From: a virus
IMG/VR virus record: IMGVR_UViG_3300045988_021759
Span: 1 to 54,448 of that record
Strand: one strand, 5' to 3'
Length of the DNA stretch: 54,448 bases
A model generated the notes under the pieces. It saw nothing but the letters and a program-made list of their open reading frames with translations, had not been told where the DNA came from and made no database searches. Below, piece after piece: positions 5,912 to 48,540 of this stretch; the stretch's first letter is position 1, and the number at the start of each line of letters is the position of its first letter. Both the position numbers and the translations under genes were made by a program.

Positions 5912-8900
5912 TTATAGATGAAGCCGGGGCAGAACGCCGCTATAGTTCGCCGCGTTGGAGTCGTAGCCCACAAAACCGCCGTTGCCCACATTGACGAAGC
6001 CGGTAGAGTAGGACACCGAAGCATCGCGAAGCCAATACCACCGCGCCCTTACCCATGCGTGTCCATTCCAGAGATATCCCACATTACTATCAGCAGAACA
6101 AATCCATACATCGCCCTTCTGGGGGTTCTTGGGCGCGGTGCTGGATACAGTGAAATTCACGCTCTGCGCCAGCGTATAGCCCGCAAACTTGATGCGGACA
6201 CGGTCAGATGTGAACCACGGAATCTGCTCGCCACAGTACACAAACGGCTCCGTATTGGTTCCGTTCATCTCGCGCATGGAGGGCAGATAGACCTTATCCT
6301 CGGATTCCAGAATACCAGCCGTGCCCGCGCCGTAATCCACGGACGATATATGAACGGAAACCAGCATCCGGCGCAGAGCCGAAGGCAAACCGGCCAGATA
6401 GCGCTTCTGGAGCCAGCTGCGCATCTCGGATGCGGGCCAGCCTCCAGCGTTGCTGTTGGTCGGGTTCATGCGGTGGTAGCCGTTCAGCAGACCCGCGTGA
6501 ATCAGGTCGATGGAGGTCGTACCGCCGCCGGTCTTGGTTGCGCCGCCGGTGCCGATGACCTCCAGATAGCTTTCCTCACGCGGCCATGCTGCCATCTTCA
6601 GGCACTCAGTCTCACCGAGGTCGTCTTTCCAGAGCTTGCACCGGTACAGGAAGCCGGTCGCAAAGTTCTTGCCGTCATTGTCGCAACCCAGCATGAGGGT
6701 CGCGTCAGATGCCGTGTCGATGGTCTTGGTCAGCTCGCGGGAAATGATGTCGTCGCCGTTCGGGTTTGCGAAATAGACGAACAGGTTCCGGCTGCCCTTG
6801 GCATGGCGCAGAACCACCAGCTCGCGGTACTGGTCGGACACATACTGTGTGCCAATGCCGGAGATGGTAGACAGGCCCGTGCCGCGACCATTGTTCACGG
6901 TGTTGGTGGACCACTGGACGGCCGTGCCGCCGCTGTATTTAACCTTGAAGCCGTGATAGCCAGTCTTGGTAAAGCAAGCCGCCACACACGACTCTGCCGT
7001 CGGCTGGTCGAATACGCAGTCCACAACCAGCGTCCAGCCGGCGTCCTTGTCCATGATCTTCACACCGGTGTCTTTGGAGGTCTTGCCGTCCAGCTCCATA
7101 TTTTCAGCCAGCAGCACAGATTCCACGTTGTCGAACTCCGGCTCATAGCCCATGGTGAACGGAACGCGGGTCTTGATGTTGTCCTCTGTGAAATAGAGGG
7201 CAGACCGTCCAGACTGCCGGATGCCGTACAGCTGCGCAAAATTCAGGTTGGAGAGATCATCACCGAAGTTCGGCAAGGATCCTTCAATCCAACGCGCATA
7301 GACGTCCATATTCTCCCGGACGTGCGCTGTGGACTTGTCCCAGCCGTTGAACAGACGATAAATGAAGTTTCCTTCCTCGTCCGTGCGCTCCGGGTCGTCG
7401 GGCGGTACTGCCTCGGTGTCATAGTCTACGGTCTTTGTGCCTACAACTACGCCGGTCTGCGAGTACCAGCGCACCGTATAGCGCTGCGGAACGCTGGTAT
7501 AGGCGGCCTTGACGGTCAGCTCGGACAGCACCTGCGTCAGAACAGTATCCCATCCAGAATAGGTGAACACTTCCGCCTGAGTTGCTTCTCTGGTCGGAGT
7601 ATCCATCAGCCCGGTTGCCACCGGGTCAGGGCAGGTCGCGCCGCGGTCAACGAGGATTTCTGCCGGGGAGCCATCTTTGAAGGTCAGCTTTGTCCCGTCA
7701 TAATCGCAGAACGTCACCTTGTACTGCTGCACGGTCCCGCCATAGGTCAGGGCCAAATCGGGCCACGCTGCGGTGTACTTTTCCACCTCAGCCTGACGAA
7801 TGACGGAGGTATAGACTTTGCCAGACAGCGAGGACTGCTGGACTTCCAGACCGTTTTCGTCGTAGCCGCCCATGCCCAGCAAACGATTCATCAGGTCTGT
7901 GCCGGTAAGCTGCCAGTCGATGCCCACAAGGCGTACCGTGTAGAGCTTGGCCGCTGCGTTGACAATATCAAGCGCAGCCGGGAACGGCGTGTTCTCGTGG
8001 CGCAGACCGGTCAGGTTTGCGTAACCGTCCGCCACCTCAAAGGTCTTGATGTTCTGCATATTGCGCAGCGTCAGGCTGACCGGGCGCTCCAGATAGCAGG
8101 TTTCCAGCGCAGAGCCAGCAGCAAAATTGACCGCGCTGACCGGCGTTCCCTTGAAGCTGGCGACTTTCAGGGCCACACAGCCGGACACGTCCACCGGTGC
8201 GGTCAAATTCGGGCAATGGTCGATTCGCAGCTCTTCCAGCACGGCCAGCGCCGAGAAATCCAGCTTGATAGAGGACGTCAGGTTGACGTTGGAATAGCCG
8301 TCCGCGTCGCTGCCAATGACGATGGAACGCAGCTTGGTGGCTGCCGAGAAGTCAGCCTGATTGGTGTAAACGCTGGCGATGCCCTCCACAGCTTCCAGCA
8401 TGGATGCCGAATAGATGTAGATTTCGGTATCATTCAGCGCCGTGTCCTTGCTCATGCTCAACGTCACCGGCTCGCCGCGCTTGCAACGCTGCTGCTTCAG
8501 GATGGAGCCGAACAGGATAGACACATACAGGTCAGAGTACGGCGTGATGGTGATAGCGGCAATCTCGCCGGTGGGACTTGCGAAGCCGCGCAGGGTGATC
8601 TTGTCGTTCCGGGCCGCCGCCGTATTCCATTTGGAGGCGAAGTAGATACTGTTGTACTTCAGGAAATAGTGACGCTGAAGCTCTTTCGTGCCGTTCATCA
8701 TGGGGATAAACATGGTGATGGCCGTGCCGCCCTCTTTCAGATCCTCATAAGGGCGGATATACTTGCGCCGCGCATCTGCAACCAGCAGACGTGCCGGGCG
8801 GAGCTTCTGGTAGGTGTCAAAGGCAGCGTTCAGGCGGTCGGCGTCGAACAGCTCCGTCAGGGTGGCAACCATCGTGTTCAGGCGGTCGGTCAGCAGGTCT

Positions 8901-11900
8901 CGGACGTTGGCCCACAGAACAGAATCCTGTGCGTTGAAGACGTTGCCGCCGTTCAGCTGGTCGGTGTCCTCCATGCCATAGTCCAGCGCGAGGTCGCCCT
9001 CGTTGTTGTTGCCCATGGCAGTGTCCATATCGTAACCGAAGCAGTAGTCCCAGATGGGATGCTCTGCCGTCACGTCATGGCAATGCGGGAACGTGTTTTT
9101 TGCGCGGTTGTCCGGCATAGTGAAGAACGAGGTGAACAGGTAGTGGTACAGGGTGGACTTGCTCTCAAAGTGCAGGTCGAACTCGTTCACGAACTTGGCA
9201 GCGCGGTATTCTGCCGTATCATTGGAATAGGTCACGCCTCCGTACACCACCGGGCTGCTCAGGGCTTCGCCGGTCGCCGCGCTGCGGTCGGTGGAATACA
9301 CCCACTTGATAACATCGCTCCACGCCTTCCGGGCCACGGCCTCGTCACAGCCATCCGCGATGTAGCGGAAAGACAGCGGCGCATTGGGGTTGTCGTCGCT
9401 CTCCCAGCTGGAGGCGTCTTCTGCACCTTCATAGCCCTTGAAACGGTTGTAGACGTGGGTGTTATTGCACAGCTCCACGATGCACTCATTGGGGCGCTGG
9501 GTGCTGTCAAGACCCTGCGCCTTTTTGTCTTTCTTCGAGTTGCCGAAATCGCCAACGCCGTAGAAAATCCACTGACCCTGCGTGAAGCCCTCTTCCGCGC
9601 TCTCGTTATACACGAAGATAACGCAGGGGTGGAACTCCATCGTGTCGCGCACCTTGGGATTCGCTGCGCGAGCCGCCCGGATATACGGCTGGTACTTGTT
9701 GAACAGCTCCGCCAGCATGGCGTTGTTCATATTCTCCGAAGAGGCAATGTTCAGCTTGACGTTGAAGTAGGTTTCGCCCATGGAACCGTCCGTCATGTCA
9801 TAGCTGTCGGCTTCAACCGTCAGGCCGTGTTCATCCGTATAGACGAACTTGCCCTTGCAGTCAAAGTCCATGTTGCGGCCCGCCTTGCCGTAGGCATTGG
9901 AGCTGGTGCCCTGCCCGCGGTGAACGACGCTTTCGTTCTTCCAGCAGTCTTTTGCCCGCGCACCATACAGCAGGTGTTCGACGCTGGATCCGGAGACCTT
10001 ATCGTTTTTGTCGGTGGTGAAGCGCGGAACCCGCAGTTTGATGACGCGGAGACCGGGATTTTTCTTCGCCAGATTGTTGATATACGCCTCGTCAATGGAT
10101 GCTGCATTCCAGTCGGTGATAATGTTGCCCGCGCCGTCGTCCACGCTGTTGCCCTCATAGCGGGCAATCATCTCGTCCGGGTCGGGCGCATCTGCGATGT
10201 AGTTGTCCATCATGTCCGCGTCGCCGAGGCTGATGTCGTAATACTTGCAGCGGTACAGCCAGACATCACAATCCGGGCTGCCGATGGTCAGCGGCACCGG
10301 GGTGCGCTGGGTCAGGCGGTCGCCCTCCGAATAGGTGGCAAACCGGGACGGAATGCCCTGCAAATTCAGGAACAGCTCGCTATTCTTCGTCCGGCTGGTG
10401 ATGTTGTAGCACAGCTCAGTGTACTCGCCCTCGCAAACGAACTGGCTGATGCTGGTCTGCTCGGTGGAGAGGGTCACTTCCTTGGCGTTCACATCCAGAC
10501 CGATACCGTCCGAAAGACACTGTGCAATCACAGCGTCAAACTTGCGCGCGTTCTTGGCCGTGTAGATCATCTTGAAAGATGCGCCGTATGCCTGAATATT
10601 GGACGAGCCGAACAGATTAAAGTTGATGGTTGCCGTATGGCCCGCGCGGACAACAAAGGCCGTGTTGCCGTCGCTGTCCTGCTGAAAGCCGCCGTTGGTC
10701 CAGTCGAAATCTTTATCCACGGTCAGAGATACGCCGTTGGATTCCCATGTGTCGCGGTCTGCTGCGGAGTTGGAGCGGCCCGACGGGTCAAAGTCAAACT
10801 TCGCGTCCACGTTGGCCGGATGGATGTCATAGCCCAGCGCGGTGGCCGTGTAGGTCATGGTGACGGTCGTTTCGCCGCAGGTCAGCGTCAGGGTATGCTC
10901 GCCCTCAGAGCGGGGCTTGTATGCCCACGACTGCAAGCTGCGGCCAACGGTCAGCGTAGTTTCCACGCCGTCAATGGACTGCTTTACAGTCGCGCTTTCA
11001 GTGGAAGGGTCATAGACCATATACTGAAGTGCAGCAGTCATATACACGCTGCCAGAAGGCTTCTTATCCTTGACCGTAATGATAGGGACATTGCTGGAGC
11101 TGTCCACGACCGCAATGCAGAAGTGGATGGTCGGGCTTTTGATTGTGTTCCCGCTGGCGGTCGTAGTCGTATAGATGTCGATGTCGTGAGCGCCGTGGGA
11201 ATTGATGGTCAAGCTCTGCACGAGCTGGCGGCCAGAGTATGTGGTGGATGCTTCCGCCACCTGCTTGCCATCCACGAGGAAGTGCGTGGTCTTGCTCATG
11301 CCGGAGCCGACCGGAGTGTAGGTGATGCGGAACGCCGTGCCCACGGTGTACAGGGTAGACTCCGACAGCGTAGCAGTCACAGAAACAGTCAGAACAGAGA
11401 TATTCCATGTCTTGGAACCGGTCGCGCCGTTCTCGTCGGTGACGACGACGCGCACCTTGTTATCACCGGCCACCAGCCACGCGCTGGGGTCAAAAGTGAT
11501 TTTCTTGTTCTGCACGATGTTGGCCGTGGCCACCTGCTCGCCGTTGACATAGTATGCAGCAGCGCCTCCAAAGTCAGGGTCAGTGTCGGTAAAGGTGTAG
11601 GACACCTCCACGCCCTGTCCCTGTGCGACGGCAAAAGACAGCGCCTTTTCACCGTTGACGTAGGTTTCGTTGGTCAGGGTGACACCGGAGGAGCCACCAG
11701 AACCACTTCCACCGCCGCCGGGGATGTACACCGGGTCAATGACGTCTTTCTCGTTCTCGTCGTACAGATGCAGGTAGTAGGTTTCCGTGTCGTAGTACAT
11801 AGAGCTGAACGCCAGCCCGCCGGAAGCCTTGATGGGCAGCATGATGGTGCCGCCGTTGGTGTAGGTGATCTTCAGGCCATCATCCACGGACTGCACGTCC

Positions 11901-12598
11901 TGAACAACGCCGTTCTCGATGATTTCCTGAAACTGGGCCAGTGTATTTGCTGCTGCGGTCGCCTGAAGCTCTGCGGTCTTTGCAGATGCAGCGGACTTCG
12001 TGGCCGCGTCGGTTGCGGTTTTGACATTTGCAGCAGCATCGGCAGCGTCAGACGTTGCCTGTTCAGCTGCGCTCTTGGCCTCGTTTGCCGTCGTCTTGGC
12101 CTCACCAGCCGTGGTGGTTGCGGTGTTTGCAGCTTCGACGGCCTTGTTGGAAGCGTCCGCTGCTTTTCCTGCCGCCTCCTGTGCAGCACTCGCAGAGGTG
12201 GAGGCTTTAGATGCTTCGTCCTCAGCCTTGGCCGCCGCCGTGCTGGCCTGAGATGCAGCAGTTTGGGCCGTGGAGACCATGCCCTCCGCGCTAGAGGCCG
12301 CTTTCTTCGCGTCGGCGGCATCCTGCACGGCGGTCTTTGCAGCGGACTCGGCGGATGCGGCTTTTACTTCAGCGGATGTTGCCCGCTCTTCGATATTGCC
12401 AACAGATTCCGAGACCTGCTTTGCTGTCGCCGCCGCTTCTTTTGCAGCAGCTTCGGCGCGGTCTGCGTCACCCTGAACAGCGTCTTTCAGGGTTTTGACC
12501 TTCATGTTGTACGTTTCGCCATCCGAAGAGATCAACAGCAGGTCATCGTCCAGAGCTTCCGTCGCAGTAGCGAAGTCCTGAATACGTTTTTCAGCCAT
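5912..12598 (-). CDS. Giant tail fibre / receptor-binding protein, DGR target (2,228 aa)
   Basis: Follows the tail-tip gene (TAAATG junction). Ala-rich coiled-coil N-terminus. C-terminus ...WYWLRDASVSYSTGFVNVGNGGFVGYDSNAANYSGVLPRLHL contains VR. Confidence 0.85.
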   Translation of the reverse strand: MAEKRIQDFATATEALDDDLLLISSDGETYNMKVKTLKDAVQGDADRAEAAAKEAAATAKQVSESVGNIEERATSAEVKAASAESAAKTAVQDAADAKKAASSAEGMVSTAQTAASQASTAAAKAEDEASKASTSASAAQEAAGKAADASNKAVEAANTATTTAGEAKTTANEAKSAAEQATSDAADAAANVKTATDAATKSAASAKTAELQATAAANTLAQFQEIIENGVVQDVQSVDDGLKITYTNGGTIMLPIKASGGLAFSSMYYDTETYYLHLYDENEKDVIDPVYIPGGGGSGSGGSSGVTLTNETYVNGEKALSFAVAQGQGVEVSYTFTDTDPDFGGAAAYYVNGEQVATANIVQNKKITFDPSAWLVAGDNKVRVVVTDENGATGSKTWNISVLTVSVTATLSESTLYTVGTAFRITYTPVGSGMSKTTHFLVDGKQVAEASTTYSGRQLVQSLTINSHGAHDIDIYTTTTASGNTIKSPTIHFCIAVVDSSSNVPIITVKDKKPSGSVYMTAALQYMVYDPSTESATVKQSIDGVETTLTVGRSLQSWAYKPRSEGEHTLTLTCGETTVTMTYTATALGYDIHPANVDAKFDFDPSGRSNSAADRDTWESNGVSLTVDKDFDWTNGGFQQDSDGNTAFVVRAGHTATINFNLFGSSNIQAYGASFKMIYTAKNARKFDAVIAQCLSDGIGLDVNAKEVTLSTEQTSISQFVCEGEYTELCYNITSRTKNSELFLNLQGIPSRFATYSEGDRLTQRTPVPLTIGSPDCDVWLYRCKYYDISLGDADMMDNYIADAPDPDEMIARYEGNSVDDGAGNIITDWNAASIDEAYINNLAKKNPGLRVIKLRVPRFTTDKNDKVSGSSVEHLLYGARAKDCWKNESVVHRGQGTSSNAYGKAGRNMDFDCKGKFVYTDEHGLTVEADSYDMTDGSMGETYFNVKLNIASSENMNNAMLAELFNKYQPYIRAARAANPKVRDTMEFHPCVIFVYNESAEEGFTQGQWIFYGVGDFGNSKKDKKAQGLDSTQRPNECIVELCNNTHVYNRFKGYEGAEDASSWESDDNPNAPLSFRYIADGCDEAVARKAWSDVIKWVYSTDRSAATGEALSSPVVYGGVTYSNDTAEYRAAKFVNEFDLHFESKSTLYHYLFTSFFTMPDNRAKNTFPHCHDVTAEHPIWDYCFGYDMDTAMGNNNEGDLALDYGMEDTDQLNGGNVFNAQDSVLWANVRDLLTDRLNTMVATLTELFDADRLNAAFDTYQKLRPARLLVADARRKYIRPYEDLKEGGTAITMFIPMMNGTKELQRHYFLKYNSIYFASKWNTAAARNDKITLRGFASPTGEIAAITITPYSDLYVSILFGSILKQQRCKRGEPVTLSMSKDTALNDTEIYIYSASMLEAVEGIASVYTNQADFSAATKLRSIVIGSDADGYSNVNLTSSIKLDFSALAVLEELRIDHCPNLTAPVDVSGCVALKVASFKGTPVSAVNFAAGSALETCYLERPVSLTLRNMQNIKTFEVADGYANLTGLRHENTPFPAALDIVNAAAKLYTVRLVGIDWQLTGTDLMNRLLGMGGYDENGLEVQQSSLSGKVYTSVIRQAEVEKYTAAWPDLALTYGGTVQQYKVTFCDYDGTKLTFKDGSPAEILVDRGATCPDPVATGLMDTPTREATQAEVFTYSGWDTVLTQVLSELTVKAAYTSVPQRYTVRWYSQTGVVVGTKTVDYDTEAVPPDDPERTDEEGNFIYRLFNGWDKSTAHVRENMDVYARWIEGSLPNFGDDLSNLNFAQLYGIRQSGRSALYFTEDNIKTRVPFTMGYEPEFDNVESVLLAENMELDGKTSKDTGVKIMDKDAGWTLVVDCVFDQPTAESCVAACFTKTGYHGFKVKYSGGTAVQWSTNTVNNGRGTGLSTISGIGTQYVSDQYRELVVLRHAKGSRNLFVYFANPNGDDIISRELTKTIDTASDATLMLGCDNDGKNFATGFLYRCKLWKDDLGETECLKMAAWPREESYLEVIGTGGATKTGGGTTSIDLIHAGLLNGYHRMNPTNSNAGGWPASEMRSWLQKRYLAGLPSALRRMLVSVHISSVDYGAGTAGILESEDKVYLPSMREMNGTNTEPFVYCGEQIPWFTSDRVRIKFAGYTLAQSVNFTVSSTAPKNPQKGDVWICSADSNVGYLWNGHAWVRARWYWLRDASVSYSTGFVNVGNGGFVGYDSNAANYSGVLPRLHL
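5919..6043 (-). repeat. DGR variable repeat (VR), covering roughly the last 43 codons of the tail-fibre gene
   Basis: 20 mismatches to TR, all at positions where TR has A on the coding strand. The 3' end cggcgttctgccccgg is invariant (IMH-like). Confidence 0.9.
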
Positions 12599-25497: not shown

Positions 25498-25620
25498 AGG
25501 ATGCCTCCGGTTCAGCAACTAAGCGTTTTAAGTCGTCGCTCTGACTTGTTGCCCCTGCCTTGTTAAGTCCGCAGGTAGACTGATATTGCGCCCTCTTTGG
25601 CCTCATGCGGCCGCAGCGGG

Positions 25621-29078: not shown

Positions 29079-30341
29079 TCATGCAATGTACTTCAGCTCT
29101 GCGCGGAGGGCCGTGCGGCAGAAGTAGCGTATCATATCCATGCTGTGGTCGAACTCTTTGATAACAGCATCCTCGCCAGATTCTTCGTCCCACGAATACT
29201 GGTCAAATTCTTTGAACGTCTCCTTGCAGCTCTCATGGAACAGCAAAAGGCCCATGTTTAGGTACTTCGTCACGTCCTGAATGCCGTTCAGAACGTCGTT
29301 GTCAGCCCTCACCACAAGCCATTCTGCATACTTTTCAATGGTTTCTATCATGGACGACGCCGAAGGGTCGATGATGATATACTCGATTTTGATGTCGCCA
29401 ATCAGCTTCTTCAGCAGCCTGTAATAGCCCTCGTTGTCAGTACGGTTTGCGCTGCCTCCACGGTAGTACAGCTCGCGTATCATGATAGCCTTATGGCTCA
29501 CCGGGTCGAAATCCCATAGGCCAGCAGCAAACGGATTGACCGTGCCGTAGTCGATGGAAACATAGTACCGGTGGCGGGAGCTGTACGGAATGACGCCTTT
29601 GACGACGTGCTTTTCCATCGAGAACATGGGATAGACAAGGCCCTCGGCCATTTTGCGTTGGCCCAGAATGTCGCGGGCATACCAGACACTTTTCCGGTCA
29701 TACGTTGACAGCACAGCCCGGAGCTGGTCGTCCGATATGCTCATATTGTCCGCGATGGTGAAATGGCCGTAGTTCAAGCCGTACTTCGGGTTCGCTTTGA
29801 GCTTTTCTTCGTGGAAGTTCAAGACATCCTGATAGTACCAGTGAGCCTCGGCTTTCGGGTTCAGGTCGTGAAATATCTTTCGGTCGGGGCTGGACAGGGT
29901 ACGGTCGAAAACCTCTTGGATGAAGATTTTGCTGCACTCGTTGGCCTCGGTGATGTAGGCCGTGCCGTAGGTGTTGCCCTTAATGAGCTTTTCATCGCCA
30001 GCCTTGCCGCCGCCGGAGATCAGCACGACCTTTTCACCGGTCGCCGTCTGGATATACAGGCAATCGCGGTTCTGGTACACGCCCTCCCGGCAGCGTCCTT
30101 CAAAGTAGTTTTTCAGGCCGAAGCCGTCACAGTCCAGAATGTTCAGCCGCGCCGTGGCCGTGGACACGCCCGCAATCAGGTGTATTCTGCTTGGATGCTT
30201 CTCCAGAATGGTGCAATACGCCATGGTGATAAGGACGTTCTTACCGCCACGCTTGCCGCCCTCTGCCACGTTGAACCAGTGGTCGAAGCAGTCCCAGAAG
30301 AAACGCATCTGGTTTTCAGAAAAAGGTGCGGGAATGTTCAT
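29079..30341 (-). CDS. terL: Terminase large subunit (PBSX/Terminase_3-like)
   Basis: Walker A-like AEGGKRGGKN, size 420 aa, ATGA overlap with terS. Confidence 0.85.
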   Translation of the reverse strand: MNIPAPFSENQMRFFWDCFDHWFNVAEGGKRGGKNVLITMAYCTILEKHPSRIHLIAGVSTATARLNILDCDGFGLKNYFEGRCREGVYQNRDCLYIQTATGEKVVLISGGGKAGDEKLIKGNTYGTAYITEANECSKIFIQEVFDRTLSSPDRKIFHDLNPKAEAHWYYQDVLNFHEEKLKANPKYGLNYGHFTIADNMSISDDQLRAVLSTYDRKSVWYARDILGQRKMAEGLVYPMFSMEKHVVKGVIPYSSRHRYYVSIDYGTVNPFAAGLWDFDPVSHKAIMIRELYYRGGSANRTDNEGYYRLLKKLIGDIKIEYIIIDPSASSMIETIEKYAEWLVVRADNDVLNGIQDVTKYLNMGLLLFHESCKETFKEFDQYSWDEESGEDAVIKEFDHSMDMIRYFCRTALRAELKYIA

Positions 30342-30850
30342 TCTTCAAAGTCCTTGATGTCGCGGTTGGGTAACGGATGCTGCAACAGGTCTGCGAGGGT
30401 CTGCATATCGGTGTTCTGGGCCTCGGTCGTGTTCTCTTGCGGTTTGTCTTTCCACTTCTCTGGCCGCCGGTTCTTCAGGTAGAAAATCTGGGCCGTCACG
30501 TTGGCCGGGACGACGACCTGCTCTTCCGCGTACTCGATACGCTCTTCCTCCAGTCTCTTTTTGCCGTCCACTTTGACGGTTTTCAGTTTGAAAGGCTTCT
30601 TGACGGTCACGGTGCGGGTCTTGCAGCTCTCGAACAGCTCATTCTCCACAATGTAGTCCGCGACGTCCTTGCCCTTTTTTAGTGCTTCCGAAAATTCGGG
30701 AAATTTGTTTTTCCATTCGCAGAGGGTCGATACTGAGCAGCCTATATTCGCGGCAATCTGCTTGTCTTTGAGGCCATCTCTTGCCCATCCACGAAGCAGC
30801 GTCAGCCCTTCAGGCTCTAGCCACTGCTCATACTTACCTTTGCGGCCAAT
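30338..30850 (-). CDS. terS: Terminase small subunit, proposed non-canonical AUU start (canonical GTG at 30649 would delete the HTH)
   Basis: In-frame codons upstream of 30649 encode IGRKGKYEQWLEPEGLTLLRGWARDGLKDKQIAANIGCSVSTLCEWKNKFPEFSEALKKGKD, a terS-type HTH. GGAGGTG sits 7 nt before ATT at 30850. Confidence 0.6.
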   Translation of the reverse strand: MGRKGKYEQWLEPEGLTLLRGWARDGLKDKQIAANIGCSVSTLCEWKNKFPEFSEALKKGKDVADYIVENELFESCKTRTVTVKKPFKLKTVKVDGKKRLEEERIEYAEEQVVVPANVTAQIFYLKNRRPEKWKDKPQENTTEAQNTDMQTLADLLQHPLPNRDIKDFEE

Positions 30851-30856: not shown

Positions 30857-31321
30857 TCACCTCCAGATACTTTCGATGCGCTTGCCAACCAGCTTATACA
30901 GCACAGCGCCAAGCAGAAGAGAAATGCCCTCGCCAGCTGCGACGCACACAGCGTTCAGCAGGAACGGAGAGCCGTACACGATGGACAGTTCTGCGCCGAC
31001 CACAATGCCGTTGAACACGGTGCCGAACAGGATAGTCGGGACAACCTTGCCGCTCCTGCGGGCGAACGTGCCAACAATGAGGTTCGCAAGGGAGCCGACG
31101 ATCACGTCCAGAATGCCCAGCGGAGAGGTCAGGTTTGCCAGTGCGCAGCCGAGGGTATAGCCGTAGACGGCAAAGGTGTTGTGCATACAGAACAGCAGGA
31201 TAACCTCCGAAATGCGGCACTGTACCTGCCCATAACTCAGCGGGGCGATTGCCACGCAGAGAACATAATAAATGGCCGCAGTCATGGCGGCATAAGCGAG
31301 GGACTTCATATTACTGCGCAT
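30857..31321 (-). CDS. queT: QueT-family queuosine-precursor transporter (ECF S-component-like membrane protein)
   Basis: AIAPLSYGQVQCRISEVILLF and GCALANLTSPLGILDVIVGSLANLI match QueT signature regions. Multi-TM, 154 aa. Confidence 0.75.
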   Translation of the reverse strand: MRSNMKSLAYAAMTAAIYYVLCVAIAPLSYGQVQCRISEVILLFCMHNTFAVYGYTLGCALANLTSPLGILDVIVGSLANLIVGTFARRSGKVVPTILFGTVFNGIVVGAELSIVYGSPFLLNAVCVAAGEGISLLLGAVLYKLVGKRIESIWR

Positions 31322-31323
31322 AA

Positions 31324-32100
31324 TCAGTACCCCCCCCCCAGAGATTTTTTCAGTCTGGCGGTCGTGGTGAACCAGTAGTTTTCATAGTATTCCTGCATCT
31401 TCATTGCCTCCTTGTATGCAGCTTCCCACTGGCGTTGGCGCATGACAGCGCGTTCCGCAGTGGTCTTTTCGTTTTTTAGCTTTCGGCCTCCCAAACGGCC
31501 ATATAGGACACCCTGTGTCCACGAAGAGCTGTCCACATAGTCAAAGGGAACTTTCTTCAGCACATCCTGCCGTGTCATGCCCAGACAATGAACGCGGCAG
31601 CTGTGCTGCCACGCTATCTTTAGGAATTGTGCATATTGGTGGTCCTTGATGTCCTCGTTCTTGAAACCGGTGATAGCAACGACCTTGCCGCTGTACTCTT
31701 CGCACATCCGGTAGAAGTCCTCAATTCCGCGTCCCTTGTGCCAGACAGGAATAATCTTGTCTGTTTCCTGTTCAAGCCGTCTGCGCAGTTTTATGACGCG
31801 CTCAAGCCCTATCACCTTGTCCACGTCCATCTCGAAATAGCCCACTATCTTGTCGCAGTCGTTTTCCCGGATGAAACGCGCATAGGATTCGGTGTATTCC
31901 TCCCAGTCCAGTTTTGTCTTACCCTTCTGGAAGGTATGAGCGCCGGAATCTATCATGATGCGCTCGCTTTGCTCAATAATGCCCTGCGCTCTTTTGGGGT
32001 TCTTCGGGATGTAGTAGTAGGACATCAGGTTGTAGTGCATCGAGCCGAGTTCATCCAGACGAGCGTTGTTGTTCTCCAGCGCACTGAGGAAAATTTTCAC
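31324..32100 (-). CDS. dpdA: DpdA-like DNA (7-deaza)guanine transglycosylase (TGT superfamily)
   Basis: IMIDSGAHTFQ (compare TGT DSGGFQ) and PFDYVDSSSW (second catalytic Asp region). 258 aa. GTG start overlapping the ParB-like stop. Confidence 0.6.
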   Translation of the reverse strand: MKIFLSALENNNARLDELGSMHYNLMSYYYIPKNPKRAQGIIEQSERIMIDSGAHTFQKGKTKLDWEEYTESYARFIRENDCDKIVGYFEMDVDKVIGLERVIKLRRRLEQETDKIIPVWHKGRGIEDFYRMCEEYSGKVVAITGFKNEDIKDHQYAQFLKIAWQHSCRVHCLGMTRQDVLKKVPFDYVDSSSWTQGVLYGRLGGRKLKNEKTTAERAVMRQRQWEAAYKEAMKMQEYYENYWFTTTARLKKSLGGGY

Positions 32101-32630
32101 TCATTGCCGTTTTGTGCATCGCCAGTGACTCCTTCAAATTTTTTGAATTTTGCTTTGAGGTCGATGTGGCCGCAGCAGGGGCAAATCAGCCTTTCGTCAT
32201 GCGGTTCATCGTACTCACTGCGCAGGTCGGTGGAATCATCAAAGATGTCCTCCGGGGCCTCACTGTCGAAGTTGAAGTCGAAGTCTCCGAAATCCACCTC
32301 CGCGAGTTCCTGCTCCAGCTTGGAGAAATCCCAGCCGGTCATCTCGCCGGTCTTGTTGGCGAGGATGCGGTATTTCTGCTTCTGCTCTTCCGTCAGGCCG
32401 GTGTAGCGCACCACGTCGGCCATGTCCACATGGAGCTGCATCAGAGCGAGGCGGCGGGTATGGCCGCTCAGAATGACGTTGTTTTCGTCCACCTCGATGG
32501 GGTCAAGTGCGCTGCACTGGCGCATACTTTCCGCGCAGGCGTTCACGGCTTCCGGGGAGATCACGCGCGGGTTGTTCTCATACGGCACAAGGTCCGCGAC
32601 CGGCAGTTTCATCAATTCCTTGGTAATCAT
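32097..32630 (-). CDS. ParB N-terminal-domain (ParB-like nuclease/NTPase) protein with C-terminal CxxC..H tail
   Basis: YENNPRVISPE and ILSGHTRRLA motifs. AAGGAGGG SD. First gene of the late operon. Confidence 0.75.
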   Translation of the reverse strand: MITKELMKLPVADLVPYENNPRVISPEAVNACAESMRQCSALDPIEVDENNVILSGHTRRLALMQLHVDMADVVRYTGLTEEQKQKYRILANKTGEMTGWDFSKLEQELAEVDFGDFDFNFDSEAPEDIFDDSTDLRSEYDEPHDERLICPCCGHIDLKAKFKKFEGVTGDAQNGNE

Positions 32631-32660
32631 GCTACCCTCCTTAGAAAATTTCGGATGACC

Positions 32661-32713
32661 ACAAAATGAAACAGAGGGTTGTCCGTTGCTGGACAGCCCT
32701 CTGTTTTTGTTTT
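32661..32713. terminator. Very strong (14-bp stem) bidirectional intrinsic terminator between tRNA-Lys and the late operon
   Basis: Stem acagagggttgtcc/ggacagccctctgt, with T-runs on both strands. Confidence 0.8.
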
Positions 32714-32788
32714 GGTGCGCCCGGTGGGACTTGGACCCACGGCTTCAGGATTAAAAGTCCTGTACTCTACCAACTGAGCTACGAGCGC
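32713..32788 (-). tRNA. tRNA-Lys (anticodon UUU), 76 nt with encoded CCA; T-loop has C at position 55
   Basis: GCGCTCG-TA-GCTC-AGTTGGTA-GAGT-A-CAGGA-CTTTTAA-TCCTG-AAGCC-GTGGG-TCCAAGT-CCCAC-CGGGCGC-A-CCA folds as a cloverleaf. Confidence 0.8.
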
Positions 32789-32869: not shown

Positions 32870-33002
32870 AGCCGATGGCTGGACTTGAACCAGCACCACA
32901 AGAGTTTCAATCCATCCGGGGACAGGCCGGACAGGGCCGCTCTTGCGTATCGTCAATGTGACCCGCCTTAACTGGGCGGCGCTCTGCTTGAGCTACAACG
33001 GC
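32870..33002 (-). ncRNA. Aberrant 133-nt tRNA-like gene (anticodon loop CAGUUAA, about 66-nt insertion before a canonical T-arm)
   Basis: GCCGTTG...CATCGGC acceptor (one T-T mismatch). CCGCC-CAGTTAA-GGCGG arm. Insertion closed by CAAGAG/CTCTTG. T-arm GCTGG-TTCAAGT-CCAGC. No encoded CCA. Confidence 0.4.
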
Positions 33003-33503: not shown

Positions 33504-34034
33504 TCATGCACTATCCCTCGTAATGTTGGGCCAGATTTCAGCCAGCGCTTCCAGCCCGTTCTTCAGGCCATTGGCAACGGTTTTTACTGACACATCGTAT
33601 TCTTCGGCGACGTTCTCGTAGGTTTTGAGCTTGAAATAGCCGTCCTTGTCCGTGGTCTCGCAGTCGATGTAATAGCTGCGCAGGTAGTCCGCAATGCGGA
33701 TGCTGTACCCATCTTCGGCGTATACGATGCAGAAAACGCGGGAGATGGCCTCCATGCGGCGCTTCACCAGTTCCGTTTCCATGTGGTTCAGCTTGCGGAT
33801 TTCCGCGTCCCTGTCGCACACAACTTCCAGAATCTTATCTCCGTTGCCGGATGCCATCGGCATTCCGTTCAAGTTCTGCGTGATATGCGTTGCAGCGTCC
33901 CGCAGACGGGCGACCTTTTCACGCTGGTTGTGGATGGCTTCAGCCATATTTCGGCAACTCTGAAACCACTTTTTCACTTCTTCTGTATCAAGAATCCCTT
34001 TGGGTTCCCATGCTCTCCATGCCCTAATCTCCAT
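33504..34034 (-). CDS. Putative late-gene transcriptional regulator (sigma-70 region-4-like C-terminal HTH; ArpU/RinA-type position)
   Basis: YENVAEEYDVSVKTVANGLKNGLEAL HTH. Last gene before the packaging module. ATG at 34034 with AAGAGGGG SD. Confidence 0.55.
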   Translation of the reverse strand: MEIRAWRAWEPKGILDTEEVKKWFQSCRNMAEAIHNQREKVARLRDAATHITQNLNGMPMASGNGDKILEVVCDRDAEIRKLNHMETELVKRRMEAISRVFCIVYAEDGYSIRIADYLRSYYIDCETTDKDGYFKLKTYENVAEEYDVSVKTVANGLKNGLEALAEIWPNITRDSA

Positions 34035-34069
34035 ATACACCCCTCTTTCTGTCTCCGGCTGCGGGCCGG

Positions 34070-34333
34070 TCACTTTGCGCCAAAGACTTCCCGCAGCGCG
34101 TCGCTGATTTCCCGCAGCGCGTCGCTGAGGGTTTTGCAGGTCTTTGCGGGCCGCACCTGAACGCTCTTTCCGGCGGACTTACCAATGGCCTCCGCGATGT
34201 CCTGTGCCAGCTTTTCCGGCACGAAGTTCTCCGCGTCAACGCGAATCTGGCAGTCAGGCGCGGGCATATTCTTTTCCAGCTCTGCCACGCGGCGTTCCAG
34301 CTGCCGGATGCGGCGGTTTTCTCTTTTACTCAT
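34070..34333 (-). CDS. Hypothetical coiled-coil protein containing a 21-bp tandem duplication
   Basis: ATG at 34333 with AAGGAG SD. ttcccgcagcgcgtcgctga occurs twice (34088..34128) and encodes SDALREISDALRE. Confidence 0.55.
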   Translation of the reverse strand: MSKRENRRIRQLERRVAELEKNMPAPDCQIRVDAENFVPEKLAQDIAEAIGKSAGKSVQVRPAKTCKTLSDALREISDALREVFGAK

Positions 34334-36193: not shown

Positions 36194-38695
36194 TCAGGCT
36201 CCATTCTCCAGCAGGTCAAACAGGGTGGGTGCGTCCTTTTCGGCGTCTGCGGCCTCCAAATAGCCCACGCCGTCGCGGAAATAGTCAGGGTTCAACTCCA
36301 CGCCCTTTCCCTTACGGTTCATCTTCACCGCCTCATACGGCACCGTGAAAAGCCCTGCAAAGGGGTCAGCAACAAGTTCGCCCTCATTGCTGTACCGCTC
36401 AATCAGGCGCTGCACGATGTCGATCTGAAGCGGGCAGACGTGGAGGTTCTGCCGCCGCTGGCTCTGGGAGGTGTTGAGCGTTTTCATCCGCACAATGTCG
36501 TCCCAGACCGTCATATCCCATGAACCGGGTGCAACGACCATGAAGGTGCTCGGCAGCCGTCCGTCTTTGTCGAGGCTTTCTGCGAGTTTGACGTGCTCGC
36601 CGTAGTCGTAGACGCTGTCGCGGCTGAACTTCCGGTAGACGCTCTGGAGTTTGGAGGTCGGAATCTTCTCCAGCTCCTCCCTAGCAAAAGGCCTGTCGCC
36701 GCTGGAACGCCAAAACGCATGAGCGTCAATCTGCCACTGGGCGCGGGTGTATTCCTCTTTGGACTTCTTCACCGGCGTATCGGCATAGCCACGGCTGCAA
36801 TCGGTGGGCAGCTTGCGGAACAGCAAGATATACTCCGGGCAGCCGACGCCCATCTTGGTGCCGTCCTTGCACTGTTCCGTCCATCCGAGGCGGTAGGTCT
36901 GGTTATTCTCGCGCACAACGTCCGTGACCACGGTAATCATCCCGAAGTACGCGAACCCGTGCTTGCGGAAATGTTCGATGCAGTCCGCATGGAACGGCTC
37001 AATGGTGGGAGCTGCAAGGCCGGTGACGTTGGCGAACTCCACGCGATCTTTGACGTGGATTGCAGCTACTCGGCCGGGCTTCAAGGTGCGCAGCAGCTCC
37101 GGCGTCAGGAAATCCATTTGCTTGAAGAACTCACCGTCATCCGGGTTGTGCCCGAAATCGTTGTACGAGGGCGAATACTCGTAATGGTTGCCGAACGGGA
37201 TACTGGTCACATACAGGTCGATGCTGTCCGTCGGCCAGCTCCTGACCTCTTCTACGCAATCGTTGTTGATTGCTGTGTAGTTGTTACCTTTGACTTCCAC
37301 TCTCTCACATCCTATCGTTCTCTTTAAGACCTCCCGTGCAAGGCTGCCGAGGCCGTATTCTTTGATAATTTCTTCCATCTGCTCGCTGAGGGCATCGTAC
37401 TGTTTCCACTTCCGCTGGAGGGCCAGCAGCACCTCCGTTTCGGTGTCCATGTACAGGATGTCAATCACGCACGGCGACTTCTGGAGAAAGCGGTAAATGC
37501 GGTGAATGGCCTGAATAAAGTCGTTGAACTCATAGTCAATGCCCATGAAGATTGCCCGGTGGCAGAACCGCTGGAAGTTGCAACCAGAGCCGGACAGGCT
37601 TTTCTTCGTGCCGAAGATGCGGGTCTTGCCCTGCGCGAAGTCCATGACGCGCTGTTCGCGGGTTTCGAGATCCATGCTGCCGTAGATGTCCACCATCTCC
37701 GGGACGGCTTTTTTCAGGGCCTTGCGCTCGTCCTCCAAGTCATGCCAGACAACGAAGTGTTCATCCACCGGGGCCTCCGTGATGATGCGGGCCACCTCAG
37801 CGGCGCGGATGTCGATGCTGTCCCGCTTCTCTTTGGCTGCATCCTGCAAGCCCATCGCAGCATCATGGCCGAGCTTCATCTGGCCGTCGGCTTCAAATTC
37901 AGCGGGCCGGTCAAGGCTGGTCAGCTTGTGATACCGGATATCCAGCGGCGGCAGGGCGTAACCATCATCCGAGAATCCGAGGTCGGACGGCTTCTGAAGG
38001 AAAAGCCCCCAGCTGGCGCACCAAATCCAGAACTCCCGCTCGCGGCCCGGATAAAGGGTCAGGTTGTTCGCCTTGGTGCTGTCCCTCTTGAAAAAGCGGG
38101 TCAAACTCTGGCCGGTGTCCATAATTTCGAGGAACCCGGCGTAGTGAATCAGCTCTTTGTACCTGTTCGGGGACGGTGTGGCCGTGTTGGTCAGCTTATA
38201 CTTGACGCCCTTGAACTTCTGCATAAAGCTCTGATAGGTCTTGCTTCCGAAGCTGCGCAGCGTGGCAGCCTCGTCTAAACTGACCGCTGTGAAATGATGC
38301 GGGTCAATGTCGCCGTCTCTGACGCGCTCGTAGTTGGTCAGGACGATGGGGGCCGTGCTGGCCTCCACTTCGGCCATCGTGCGGCAGTATGGCGGCTCGT
38401 CCATGCCAAGCAGGTTCACGGCGTCGGCCTTGAACTCCGGCAGGACGTTCAGCGGCATCACAACGAGCGTCTGGCCGCCCTCGTGCTTCTGGAGCAGCCT
38501 GCACCATTCAAGCTGCATGATGGTCTTTCCCAGACCGAAGCGGGCGAAAATGCCACGGCGGCCCCCGCGCAGCGCCCACAGGACGCTCACGCGCTGGTGA
38601 TCTTTCAGCGCCGGGCTGACCTCGGCGGGGTCAATCTCGATACCGGACAGGGGCGCAATGTCGATTTTGCGCTCCAAAAACTCCTTGTATGTCAT
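36194..38695 (-). CDS. Fusion protein: SNF2/DEAD-like helicase N-terminus plus beta-class DNA (N6-A/N4-C) methyltransferase C-terminus
   Basis: FGLGKT (motif I) and SLDEAA (motif II). Methylase motif IV-like TSIPFGNHYEY precedes motif I-like VADPFAGLFT. Confidence 0.8.
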   Translation of the reverse strand: MTYKEFLERKIDIAPLSGIEIDPAEVSPALKDHQRVSVLWALRGGRRGIFARFGLGKTIMQLEWCRLLQKHEGGQTLVVMPLNVLPEFKADAVNLLGMDEPPYCRTMAEVEASTAPIVLTNYERVRDGDIDPHHFTAVSLDEAATLRSFGSKTYQSFMQKFKGVKYKLTNTATPSPNRYKELIHYAGFLEIMDTGQSLTRFFKRDSTKANNLTLYPGREREFWIWCASWGLFLQKPSDLGFSDDGYALPPLDIRYHKLTSLDRPAEFEADGQMKLGHDAAMGLQDAAKEKRDSIDIRAAEVARIITEAPVDEHFVVWHDLEDERKALKKAVPEMVDIYGSMDLETREQRVMDFAQGKTRIFGTKKSLSGSGCNFQRFCHRAIFMGIDYEFNDFIQAIHRIYRFLQKSPCVIDILYMDTETEVLLALQRKWKQYDALSEQMEEIIKEYGLGSLAREVLKRTIGCERVEVKGNNYTAINNDCVEEVRSWPTDSIDLYVTSIPFGNHYEYSPSYNDFGHNPDDGEFFKQMDFLTPELLRTLKPGRVAAIHVKDRVEFANVTGLAAPTIEPFHADCIEHFRKHGFAYFGMITVVTDVVRENNQTYRLGWTEQCKDGTKMGVGCPEYILLFRKLPTDCSRGYADTPVKKSKEEYTRAQWQIDAHAFWRSSGDRPFAREELEKIPTSKLQSVYRKFSRDSVYDYGEHVKLAESLDKDGRLPSTFMVVAPGSWDMTVWDDIVRMKTLNTSQSQRRQNLHVCPLQIDIVQRLIERYSNEGELVADPFAGLFTVPYEAVKMNRKGKGVELNPDYFRDGVGYLEAADAEKDAPTLFDLLENGA

Positions 38696-47020: not shown

Positions 47021-47347
47021 TCAGTAATACTCGATTTCAACCAGAGATGTGGAAACCAACTCAAAGCGGCCATCTGACCGAGGGATACGGAGCAGCTGAT
47101 ATTCACGCTCAGCAGATAGCTTCGGGTCAGGCAGCAGCTCGCCGAAGTCCTCCACGGTGATGGTATACTTCGGATACCGCCGGGCTGCGTATGTTCCATC
47201 TTCAATGGCAGGAGAATAGACGGTGACGTGGTAACAGGGGTGGTCAGCAGTTCCAGCCTCAGCAGATGTAGAACCGCAGGCGGCAAACCAGAGCGTCAGG
47301 GTCAGCAGCAGAGCCGCGACAACAAAACAGGAAATTCGATTTTTCAT
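47021..47347 (-). CDS. Lipoprotein (signal peptide plus lipobox), superinfection-exclusion candidate
   Basis: MKNRISCFVVAALLLTLTLWFAAC|GSTS. ATGA overlap with the upstream gene. Confidence 0.65.
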   Translation of the reverse strand: MKNRISCFVVAALLLTLTLWFAACGSTSAEAGTADHPCYHVTVYSPAIEDGTYAARRYPKYTITVEDFGELLPDPKLSAEREYQLLRIPRSDGRFELVSTSLVEIEYY

Positions 47348-48015
47348 TCTTCCGCACGTCCTTTCAGGTATTCTTTGGCAGTTTCTTTGATGGCCGTATC
47401 CCGGAGGAACGTCCACGAATCATCGTCGTCAATGAGCTTCCGCATCTTGGCCGCAGCAGTTTGAACCAGTTTGCAAAGGGCTTTGCGCTCCATCCGGTAC
47501 TCCTGCCGGATTTCATCATCTGTGAGCTGGTCAATGTACGACTGAACATCCTCTATGTCGTTCTGTTTCTGGATGTCCCAGACGATTTCGCACCGGCGGC
47601 CATCAGCCTGAATGCCGTACAGCAGGAACGAAACTCCTTTGCTGTAACGATCATCGAACCAGTGCCAGACCTCCAGCCGGTTTGTGCCAGCCGGGAAATG
47701 TAGGAATGCAGCTTCTAGCTCTTCCGTTTCGGGGTTCATCGGAACATCGTCAAGCTGCTTCCACAGCGCTTCCAGAACAGCATCGCGCTTCTGCAAGGTT
47801 GCCATGCCCGCGCCGTTCACGGCCCGCTCGTTCCAGAGCTTCGCGGCCTGACCCTGCGCAATGAACTTCGTACTGTGCCACTGCTTGACCCATACAGCGC
47901 CGCCGGTAGCACCACAGCCGGAACAGGAAACGCGGTACCTGCCGCCAAAGTCCCGAATGTGCGCCGTGCCGCCGCAGAACGGGCAGGGCTTCAAATCAAA
48001 ATTCGCCATCTTCAT
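47344..48015 (-). CDS. Lar-like restriction-alleviation zinc-ribbon N-domain plus unknown C-domain (start 48015 or 48009)
   Basis: LKPCPFCGGTA...VSCSGCG...AAKLWNERA pattern. Confidence 0.55.
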   Translation of the reverse strand: MKMANFDLKPCPFCGGTAHIRDFGGRYRVSCSGCGATGGAVWVKQWHSTKFIAQGQAAKLWNERAVNGAGMATLQKRDAVLEALWKQLDDVPMNPETEELEAAFLHFPAGTNRLEVWHWFDDRYSKGVSFLLYGIQADGRRCEIVWDIQKQNDIEDVQSYIDQLTDDEIRQEYRMERKALCKLVQTAAAKMRKLIDDDDSWTFLRDTAIKETAKEYLKGRAEE

Positions 48016-48018: not shown

Positions 48019-48540
48019 TCACTTTCTGGAAATCAGTTCCATGCACAGCTCTTTGTAGGTGTCACGCTGCACACAGACCTTGATAAATTCGGCGTCCTCG
48101 TGCGAGTGCCCCCCCTCAGAGGGCTTTGCAGGTGCCGCCGGGACAGCAGCGGGAGCGGGTGCAGCAGCCACGACCGGCACGGGCTGAGGCTTGGACAAGT
48201 AGTTGTCGAGGCCGAGGCTGGCCATTATGGCGACTTCCACCGCCTCCATTTCGCCCTGCGTCAGCTTGCCGTAATAATCGTTCAGGCGGGTCTTGTCCAC
48301 GGTGGTGATTTGCTCACAGATTGCGGTAGAGGGGCGCTGTGCGCTGTCAATAAAGACGTGCGTAATCAGCGGCCTCTTCTCTTTTGTGGTCAAGTAGACC
48401 ACCTCGACCGTGGCAGCGTTCTTGTTGTTCAGGTTGTTGCTGACGACGATACCGGGCCGCCCGCTGCGCTGCTCGCAGCCGACCTCGTTGCCCTCCGGCA
48501 GCACATAATAGATTTCACCGCGATAAACCATTCCGTTCAT
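48019..48540 (-). CDS. MazF/PemK-like toxin-fold protein with a roughly 60-aa C-terminal extension
   Basis: RGEIYYV....G.EQRSGRPGIVVSNN...VEVVYLTT....P.THV.I......SAICEQITTVDKTRL matches the PemK/MazF layout. Confidence 0.6.
   Translation of the reverse strand: MNGMVYRGEIYYVLPEGNEVGCEQRSGRPGIVVSNNLNNKNAATVEVVYLTTKEKRPLITHVFIDSAQRPSTAICEQITTVDKTRLNDYYGKLTQGEMEAVEVAIMASLGLDNYLSKPQPVPVVAAAPAPAAVPAAPAKPSEGGHSHEDAEFIKVCVQRDTYKELCMELISRK

Follow-up and report, generated by a model that had tools for sequence, protein, structure and literature searches.

A ParB-like, DpdA-like and QueT gene cassette of a gut phage and its probable role in salvage-fed 7-deazaguanine modification of DNA

Genes and setting of the cassette

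The DNA analyzed here, hereafter referred to as the window, is the full 54,448-nt record IMGVR_UViG_3300045988_021759, an IMG/VR virus. As judged from the open reading frame (ORF) listing and the sequence, it carries a cassette of three minus-strand genes (32630..30857) directly upstream of the terminase genes terS and terL. An earlier note had read these genes as encoding a ParB N-domain protein, a DpdA-like enzyme and a QueT-type transporter, together serving 7-deazaguanine modification of DNA. The three ORFs lie where it had placed them, with products of 177, 258 and 154 amino acids (aa), and both of the junctions that it described are present: the stop codon of the parB-like gene and the start codon of dpdA overlap in GTGA at 32100..32097, and a gap of 2 nt separates the dpdA TGA (31326..31324) from the queT ATG at 31321. 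The three genes are:

32097..32630, minus strand: ParB/Srx-fold protein, 177 aa (ORF, PHROG 620, AlphaFold2/Foldseek)
31324..32100, minus strand: homolog of DpdA1-type DNA-guanine transglycosylases, 258 aa, GTG start (PHROG 887, hhalign, BFVD)
30857..31321, minus strand: QueT, energy-coupling factor (ECF) S-component for queuosine precursors, 154 aa (Pfam PF06177)

Codon-usage scores are positive for all three ORFs, and the identical three-gene order recurs in 23 other, independent assemblies. Comparison with diverged relatives yielded ratios of nonsynonymous to synonymous substitution rates (dN/dS) of 0.05-0.20 at dS 0.65-1.5, with values of 0.05 for the parB-like gene, 0.05-0.10 for dpdA and 0.09-0.20 for queT. 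Together, these results identify the ORFs as real genes rather than chance reading frames, and all three are under purifying selection. The motifs quoted in the earlier note are located at positions that do not vary in the family alignments, NPR and GHTRR at residues 20-22 and 56-60 of the ParB-like protein and DSGAHTFQ and VDSSSW at residues 51-58 and 189-194 of the 258-aa protein.

The latter had been proposed to be a TGT-superfamily protein fitting DpdA, which is well supported by profile comparisons. Using hhalign, a 60-sequence family profile matched DpdA of Enterobacteria phage 9g with a probability of 99.4% (E 3.3e-21, 231 columns) and DpdA1 of Cellulophaga phage phiSM with a probability of 99.0% (E 2.8e-18); tblastn of the protein to phiSM gave an E value of 6e-7. 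In the 9g alignment, the DSGA, PxxH, HGLG and DSSSW motifs are in register, the window motifs standing opposite DSGAF and CDSSSW of 9g. The best-matching phage orthologous group is PHROG 887 ('queuine tRNA-ribosyltransferase'; E 2.6e-39). Alignments of 60 and 52 sequences show no variation at D51-S52-G53 or D190-S191 and little or none at W194, and the motifs around D51 and D190 are predicted to be catalytic. An AlphaFold2 (AF2) model of the protein is TIM-barrel-like, with a predicted local distance difference test score (pLDDT) of 90.9 and a predicted template modelling score of 0.89, and its structural neighbours in BFVD are phage proteins annotated as 'queuine tRNA-ribosyltransferase', with E values down to 1e-25. 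The 9g enzyme has been shown experimentally to insert preQ0 into DNA (PMC6884629), and phiSM DNA carries dPreQ1 and mdPreQ1 (PMC10516641).

The assignment of the third gene to QueT is well supported: its product scores 109.3 bits with PF06177, far above the 33.7-bit cut-off (E 2.5e-31), and covers 140 of the 141 profile positions (1-140). The protein is hydrophobic throughout, with about six hydrophobic helices and a basic N-terminus, 88-92 loop and C-terminus, a hydropathy pattern that suggests six membrane helices in an N-in/C-in topology. Its PHROG, 27044, is annotated 'unknown function'. Known cargoes of QueT/QrtT transporters are preQ1, queuine or queuosine (PMC11130926). No ecf genes were detected among the domain-scanned ORFs of the window, nor was a preQ1 riboswitch detected in the window by Rfam.

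In the ParB-like protein, an N-domain containing PYENNPR and G56-H-T-R59-R-L-A62 is joined by an acidic linker (DFGDFDF) to a C-terminal tail that has a CPCCG knuckle. G56, R59 and A62 of the GxxRxxA motif occupy invariant or near-invariant columns of the family alignment. Its identification as a ParB N-domain protein is borne out by a match to PHROG 620 ('ParB-like'; E 4.6e-42), by PF02195 matches on homologs at 50-57% identity and by the neighbours of its AF2 model; the window protein itself had no Pfam match at E up to 1. The model (pLDDT 81.7) retrieved the ParB N-domain of pNOB8 (E 4e-7), Noc, PadC, Atu1540 and sulfiredoxin when compared with the PDB using Foldseek, and superimposes on B. 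subtilis ParB-CDP (6SDK) with a root-mean-square deviation of 2.4 Å over 96 columns at 24% identity. A canonical partition ParB was considered and rejected, because the protein comprises only the N-domain and a poorly ordered tail, with no helix-turn-helix (HTH) or dimerisation domain, and no ParA-like gene is adjacent. By analogy with bacterial Dpd systems, it is presumed to be a nucleoside triphosphate (NTP)-dependent, DNA-binding partner of DpdA. The partnership of DpdA with a ParB-like protein that the earlier note mentioned is documented in Salmonella Montevideo, in which bacterial DpdA needs the ATPase activity of the ParB-fold protein DpdB for preQ0 insertion (PMC10164549).

The N-domain (residues 1 to ~120) is also found, at 93-96% identity, in proteins with other C-terminal tails (L064 4001..5597; also L065 and L066; proteins P0405 and P0413). 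In the same slot before terS, a 194-aa variant is followed by a 339-aa radical-SAM protein, which may point to a further phage DNA modification that is as yet uncharacterised. In other phages, the ParB N-domain is fused directly to an N6_N4 DNA methyltransferase, and the N-terminus of methyltransferases in PHROG and PADLOC matches the ParB-like protein. From these sequence patterns we read the N-domain as a putative general nucleotide-dependent, DNA-engaging helper and the tail as its presumably partner-specific part. The portability of the N-domain fits a published remark that ParBc domains stand next to, or are fused with, many phage DNA-modifying enzymes in a role that is not known (PMC12783734). 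One further protein, P0459 (197 aa, on one 1069-bp ENA contig), joins ParB residues 1-88 to the C-terminal two-thirds of QueT, with DpdA missing; it represents a deletion variant or, alternatively, an assembly chimera.

The surroundings of the cassette comprise the following features:

32713..32788, minus strand: tRNA-Lys (anticodon UUU), upstream of the cassette (ARAGORN; Rfam 71.9 bits)
32668..32707, minus strand: terminator-like hairpin, 18 bp, G+C-rich with a T-rich tail, between tRNA-Lys and the cassette
32636..32642, minus strand: Shine-Dalgarno sequence AAGGAGG, 5 nt before the parB-like ATG (read from the sequence)
30338..30850, minus strand: terS, small terminase subunit, 170 aa, ATT start (junction and conservation)
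29079..30341, minus strand: terL, large terminase subunit, 420 aa, overlapping the terS stop

The proposal that the cassette heads the packaging or late operon is supported by the position of terS and terL directly downstream. Relatives of terL are annotated as Terminase_3 (L001) or Terminase_6N (L002), and its best DNA match is a large terminase. On the upstream side, the hairpin scan reported the plus strand, but the palindrome is equal on the minus strand, where it is followed by ATTTTGTGG; the hairpin is the boundary before the late operon. The start of terS is a conserved ATT at 30850..30848, 6 nt past the queT stop and in the same frame, and not the GTG at 30649. There is no ATG, GTG or TTG start; the N-terminal HTH region is conserved from the ATT onward, the 170-aa region is 84-100% conserved among related loci, the queT/terS junction is identical in 24/24 of these, and DNA similarity to terS of Flavonifractor phage Chenonceau includes the part upstream of the GTG. 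The GGAGG Shine-Dalgarno sequence of terS sits within the last queT codons. Because of this non-canonical start, ORF callers shorten terS to 103-112 aa. A second, weak Rfam tRNA match at 32870..33002 on the minus strand (39.3 bits, 133 nt), which would need an insertion or intron and was not called by ARAGORN, is located in the 870-nt non-coding stretch between a sigma-like gene (34073..33504) and the cassette.

Precursor supply and the proposed DNA modification

According to the earlier note, queC, queD, queE and folE are absent from this genome, which was confirmed in two ways. None of the 20 largest non-structural ORFs has a Pfam match to QueC, PTPS, QueE-type radical SAM, GTP cyclohydrolase I or QueF, the domains found on them being those of replication, recombination, methylase, Lar, MazF, HTH, integrase and reverse transcriptase. 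Likewise, a six-frame tblastn search of the window with QueF, QueC, QueD, QueE and FolE from a related locus (L051) was empty.

Using DpdA as bait, 59 related loci were collected, of which 58 are viral or metagenomic and one belongs to a Clostridia metagenome-assembled genome (MAG). Wherever the sequence extends past the 5' end of DpdA, the gene directly before it is, in essentially every locus, a ParB-like homolog, with identities reaching down to 28-50%. The slot 3' of DpdA, on the other hand, varies: it is occupied by QueT in 27 loci, by a Vut_1/YhhQ (QPTR) transporter in 28 and by a QueF-QueC-QueD-QueE-FolE operon in two, while one locus has a glycosyltransferase and one ends at a contig edge. 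Thus, 7-deazaguanine supply genes are found directly 3' of DpdA in 57/59 loci. The 27 QueT loci form two clades, the QueT of the second being 35% identical to that of the window. A transporter before terS, called unusual in the earlier note, is instead the rule in this phage family (55/59 loci).

This comparative context is the strongest evidence of the analysis. A conserved ParB-DpdA core combined with swappable modules that either make or take up the base ties the enzyme to 7-deazaguanines and QueT to precursor supply, and this alternation between making and taking is strong support for 7-deazaguanine modification of phage DNA fed by salvage. The suggestion that the phage imports or scavenges the precursor rather than synthesizing it is in agreement with both the lack of pathway genes in the window and the use of the orthologous slot for a YhhQ-type transporter or a whole preQ1 pathway. 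As to the identity of the imported base, we lean toward preQ1 rather than preQ0, given the presence of QueF in the de novo versions and the transport of preQ1, queuine and queuosine by QrtT transporters (PMC11130926).

Our preferred interpretation, which we consider probable, is that the cassette is a late-expressed, salvage-fed 7-deazaguanine DNA modification system of a temperate tailed gut phage. QueT, in the host membrane, would use the host's shared EcfAA'T module to import a free queuosine-precursor base, preQ1 or preQ0. The DpdA1-type enzyme, as suggested by its homology to 9g DpdA, would then put the imported base in place of guanines once the phage DNA has been replicated. The ParB/Srx-fold protein would engage DNA and support DpdA, as DpdB does for bacterial DpdA; analogy, conserved adjacency and translational coupling all point to such a helper role. 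With the cassette opening the packaging operon, modification would be timed just before or during encapsidation, and the modified DNA would be expected to resist host restriction at the next infection. In addition, a hypermutable G tract at the dpdA/queT junction would create a mixed phage population, with either separate DpdA and QueT or one membrane-anchored polypeptide.

The temperate lifestyle is indicated by an integrase and a repressor-like HTH protein in the window, and the location of one cluster member on an 826-kb contig identifies the phage element as a prophage, which a 197-kb contig carries as well. Its host is probably a Clostridia-type Firmicute; in a blastn comparison with phages, the matches were short and confined to terminase and tRNA sequences, a Flavonifractor phage being among them.

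Several observations weigh against this interpretation. Scans of the 258-aa protein against Pfam (including the TGT family PF01702), NCBIfam and PADLOC, the latter including Dpd models such as that for DpdE, returned nothing relevant and no bDpdA, and both phmmer and the 60-sequence profile gave only chance matches to PDB sequences. As for the expected TGT fold, the model is TIM-barrel-like, but Foldseek against the PDB retrieved only generic TIM barrels (E of at least 5e-3), with no TGT and no DpdA (7UI4) structure in the top 50; the link to DpdA comes from the hhalign matches to 9g and phiSM and from the BFVD neighbours. The failure of Pfam and PDB sequence searches says little in itself, since the experimentally validated 9g DpdA has no Pfam or PDB sequence match either, making this a low-power test for phage DpdA1. 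The ParB-like protein does not belong to the DpdB/DndB family: it matches no PADLOC DpdB model, has GHTRRLA instead of the DpdB motif DGQQR and lacks a large DndB/SspE-like C-domain. The near-identical N-domains with radical-SAM or methyltransferase partners make a generic accessory possible. Furthermore, expression of phiSM DpdA1 in E. coli gave no activity (PMC10516641), the length differences of the G tract may be partly due to assembly error, and for host, ECF module and queuosine pathway the scan of GTDB genomes provided one match, a Clostridia MAG at 57% identity.

The swapping of supply modules also bears on the role of QueT. Conceivably, DpdA uses preQ0 or preQ1 made by the host, with QueT adding little to the supply and serving mostly to anchor the modification or packaging machinery in the membrane, or being an unrelated membrane protein. 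Many hosts of DpdA-only phages do encode the full queuosine pathway (PMC6884629), and a recurring fusion with DpdA would tether the enzyme to the membrane. We regard this as improbable, as a slot exchanged between two unrelated families of precursor transporters or a complete pathway speaks for supply and not anchoring, and QueT is full-length, high-scoring and under purifying selection.

Equally improbable, in our view, is that the cassette serves translation or the lysogen, with QueT as a lysogenic-conversion gene for host salvage and the TGT-like enzyme boosting queuosine-tRNA late in infection. Such a role would suit a temperate phage with its own tRNA-Lys just upstream; phages with a preQ0 pathway and no DpdA have been proposed to boost tRNA queuosine (PMC6884629), and many gut bacteria are queuosine-precursor auxotrophs (PMC11130926). 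Yet the enzyme groups with the DNA-acting DpdA1 of phage 9g rather than with tRNA TGTs, it is translationally coupled to a ParB-fold protein for which DNA binding is predicted, and the genes are part of a late packaging operon behind the terminator-like hairpin with no promoter of their own, unlike a typical moron. If virion DNA proved to be unmodified, the cassette would point to phage manipulation of host queuosine salvage.

A more serious challenge to DNA modification assisted by a dedicated ParB-fold helper concerns the first gene. Its product might be a generic module of this slot, active for example in DNA loading or at the packaging site, as a nuclease or in anti-defence, rather than a cofactor of DpdA. 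The N-domain precedes a radical-SAM protein or forms part of methyltransferase fusions at the same pre-terS position with 93-96% identity, and it resembles the N-terminus of methyltransferases in both PADLOC and PHROG. The frequent association of ParBc with phage DNA-modifying enzymes (PMC12783734) points in the same direction, as does the activity of 9g DpdA in E. coli without a phage ParB (PMC6884629). Against this stand the switching of the C-terminal tail with the enzyme partner, which suggests partner-specific contacts, the persistence of the 4-nt-overlap adjacency down to 28-50% ParB identity, with adjacency seen in phiFN37 and phiSM as well, and the strict requirement of bacterial DpdA for a ParB-fold NTPase (PMC10164549). 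Moreover, a generic role as helper of base-flipping enzymes would also fit the preferred interpretation. Overall, we consider a generic module without a DpdA cofactor function rather unlikely, while giving it appreciably more weight than the two preceding alternatives.

Earlier publications describe DpdA systems in phages, DpdA-only phages and preQ0 transporters of the YhhQ type encoded by phages, and the core interpretation extends known biology in an expected way. The DpdA1 systems of phage 9g, Escherichia phage CAjan and phiSM (PMC6884629, PMC10516641) have a homologous transglycosylase and the same presumed anti-restriction exchange of guanine after replication. These systems carry FolE, QueD, QueE and QueC, with or without QueF or Gat-QueC, whereas the window has none of these and is predicted to rely on import via QueT instead. 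They differ also in that the window cassette heads the packaging operon of a temperate phage and that its dpdA stop lies in a hypervariable G tract. In phiSM, a ParB-like gene adjoins DpdA1 within the que cluster; BLASTP found no similarity between the window ParB and the phiSM ParB-like protein, and the phiSM adjacency thus involves a distant ParB-fold protein.

DpdA-only phages, some with a YhhQ/QPTR transporter (group 3 of Hutinet 2019, PMC6884629; Enterobacter phage EC151, PMC8310023; phiFN37), likewise have DpdA without biosynthesis genes. They have been proposed to use host or exogenous precursors, sometimes with the help of phage YhhQ, and Clostridium hosts lack preQ0 synthesis (PMC6884629); precursor uptake had been explicitly suggested both in 2016 and in 2019 (2019: PMC6884629). 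The transporter of the window, in contrast, is an ECF QueT (PF06177) unrelated to YhhQ. In addition, linkage to a transporter is nearly universal in this DpdA clade, which contrasts with the report that YhhQ does not correlate with any phage group (Hutinet 2019, PMC6884629). In Fusobacterium phage phiFN37 (OR492271, L060; 4519..6828), genes for ParB, DpdA (4-nt overlap), a DUF6884 protein and Vut_1 follow each other in this order. The ParB of this phage is 31% identical to that of the window over its full length, including the CPxCG tail, and its DUF6884 protein has weak similarity to PF03883, the DpdC family. With this gene set, phiFN37 offers, in a phage that can be cultured, a candidate for a salvage-fed system of the dADG type.

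With the bacterial DpdA/DpdB pair the window shares a TGT-superfamily transglycosylase together with a ParB-fold nucleotide-binding protein, and the structural neighbours of the window ParB-like model are those reported for DpdB (PMC10164549). On the other hand, the window proteins miss the PADLOC Dpd models, there is no DpdC and there are no DpdD-K restriction genes; at 177 aa, the window ParB has the classical GxxRxxA motif and not DGQQR, and no DndB/SspE-like C-domain. Phage modules of ParBc and methyltransferase share the N-domain, but the partner in the window is a base-exchanging transglycosylase and the tail, with CPxCG, is its own.

Neither ParB nor DpdB is mentioned for phages in Hutinet 2019 (PMC6884629) or Cui 2023 (PMC10516641). 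In the literature searched, we found no QueT in a phage DpdA cassette (a mention in the 2024 7-deazaguanine review in MMBR, Microbiology and Molecular Biology Reviews, is possible), no near-universal ParB-DpdA-supply architecture in gut phages and no DpdA-QueT fusion driven by a G tract. As 7-deazaguanine DNA modification is an established phage counter-defence, the locus bears on where DpdA-only phages obtain their base and on whether phage DpdA needs a DpdB-like helper. It exemplifies a widespread gut-phage unit of a ParB-fold protein and DpdA with a swappable supply (QueT, YhhQ or a full preQ1 pathway), and leads to the prediction that DNA modification in gut phages depends on queuosine precursors shared in the microbial community. 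The small ParB-fold protein is a candidate for the missing cofactor and may explain the inactivity of phiSM DpdA1 when expressed alone.

The G tract at the dpdA/queT junction

The 3' end of dpdA contains an unusual homopolymer:

31330..31339, minus strand: G10 tract (C10 on the plus strand), over the last Gly codons of dpdA and 8 nt before the queT ATG

In sequence and placement it resembles a Shine-Dalgarno sequence for queT. Across 24 assemblies, the tract varies from 6 to 11 G's, and inspection of the DNA showed that its length alone sets the length of the product. With G8 or G11, DpdA is in frame with QueT ('..LGG(G)VLIM..QueT'), while G7 and G10 end in '..GGY*' and G6 and G9 in '..GGTDYAQ*'; nine of the assemblies are fused, eight end in '..Y*' and seven in '..TDYAQ*'. 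The corresponding products of 257/258, 261-263 and 413-415 aa are found on hundreds of contigs from different pipelines, the exact 258-aa form on 34 contigs. The DpdA-QueT fusions of 413-415 aa, retrieved in the first homolog search, are 80-99% identical and carry PF06177.

Up to 4 G's separate genomes whose flanks are 96-99% identical, and we take the tract to be truly hypermutable. It is the sole homopolymer of at least 8 bases in 54 kb, with 0.08-0.18 runs of at least 10 expected. Although Gly is least often encoded by GGG in this genome (8.9% of Gly codons), the run is unbroken across lineages at dS 0.65-1.5. The tract is probably maintained by selection and may be a slippage site.

The length differences and the fusions could nevertheless be sequencing or assembly artefacts, in which case there would be one fixed state and the tract would only encode Gly-Gly-Gly. 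Homopolymers of at least 8 are error-prone in short- and long-read data alike, and all frames keep both proteins, so that nothing obviously hangs on length. A DpdA-Vut_1 fusion, P0200, also looks like a frameshift artefact, with a nonsense-like, seemingly out-of-frame linker and a partial match to the transporter profile, and was rejected. Such an origin, however, accords poorly with lengths that span 6 to 11 rather than plus or minus 1 in otherwise closely similar genomes, with the recovery of each product length on many independent contigs through different pipelines, and with the integrity of the run in spite of its rare codon, as the only long homopolymer of the window. A DpdA-QueT fusion without a G tract is known as well (P0124, 56% identity); it is a read-through of the spacer in which the ribosome-binding site and ATG are kept, comes from a single 1.8-kb contig and constitutes weak evidence of an independent fusion. 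On balance, we judge a purely artefactual origin unlikely, if by no means negligible.

Hypermutable poly-G contingency tracts have been described for Campylobacter and its phages. Like these, the tract of the window is a long G run within coding sequence, with a length that differs between near-identical genomes and thereby moves the reading frame. The Campylobacter-type tracts, however, act as ON/OFF switches, whereas in the present one, as seen in assemblies, neither protein is lost. Because both proteins are intact in all three frames, any switch would be between separate and fused forms. A fusion is topologically plausible given the predicted cytoplasmic N-terminus of QueT. One may speculate, and we hold this to be doubtful, that the tract is a contingency switch between free DpdA plus free QueT and a membrane-anchored fusion that hands the imported base directly to the enzyme. 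If true, progeny of one burst would differ in how densely, or when, their genomes are modified, with some evading classical restriction and others modification-dependent (type IV-like) restriction, and phage DNA modification would gain a new principle, namely a physical fusion of transporter and DNA-modifying enzyme whose formation is under hypermutable control. The enzyme-transporter fusion brought about by the tract could represent a rare case of transport-coupled nucleic-acid modification.

The same junction has a different appearance in the second QueT clade (L027, L031, L039 and L056; ~5738..5790 in L027). There, the conserved QueT N-terminus, INRNKTIAFNAV.., follows past the dpdA stop without a canonical start, the first ATG being 12 codons into the Pfam match, and the junction is A-rich (GAATAAATAGAAATAAG). 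This may reflect a non-canonical start or another slippage-type coupling.

Other elements of the window

Several further genes of the window are related to defence or counter-defence, and the phage appears to stack several anti-restriction strategies. A diversity-generating retroelement is located at 3130..6043 on the minus strand. Its template repeat (4798..4922), which translates as an Asn-rich sequence, is 84% identical to the variable repeat (5919..6043), the latter forming the 3' end of a 2228-aa tail-fibre gene (12598..5912). These elements are listed below, together with a cis-regulatory RNA motif that lies upstream of the scaffold and capsid genes and scores 39.8 bits against a gathering score of 36.2 bits.

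36194..38695, minus strand: helicase-C and N6_N4 DNA methyltransferase protein, 833 aa, further (counter-)defence
47344..48015 and 48019..48540, minus strand: Lar-like restriction-alleviation protein and PemK/MazF-family toxin, respectively, further (counter-)defence
4638..3130, minus strand: reverse transcriptase of the retroelement (PF00078, YMDD)
4536..4801, minus strand: Rfam RT-2 RNA of the retroelement
25520..25581, minus strand: Rfam GP20-b cis-regulatory RNA motif

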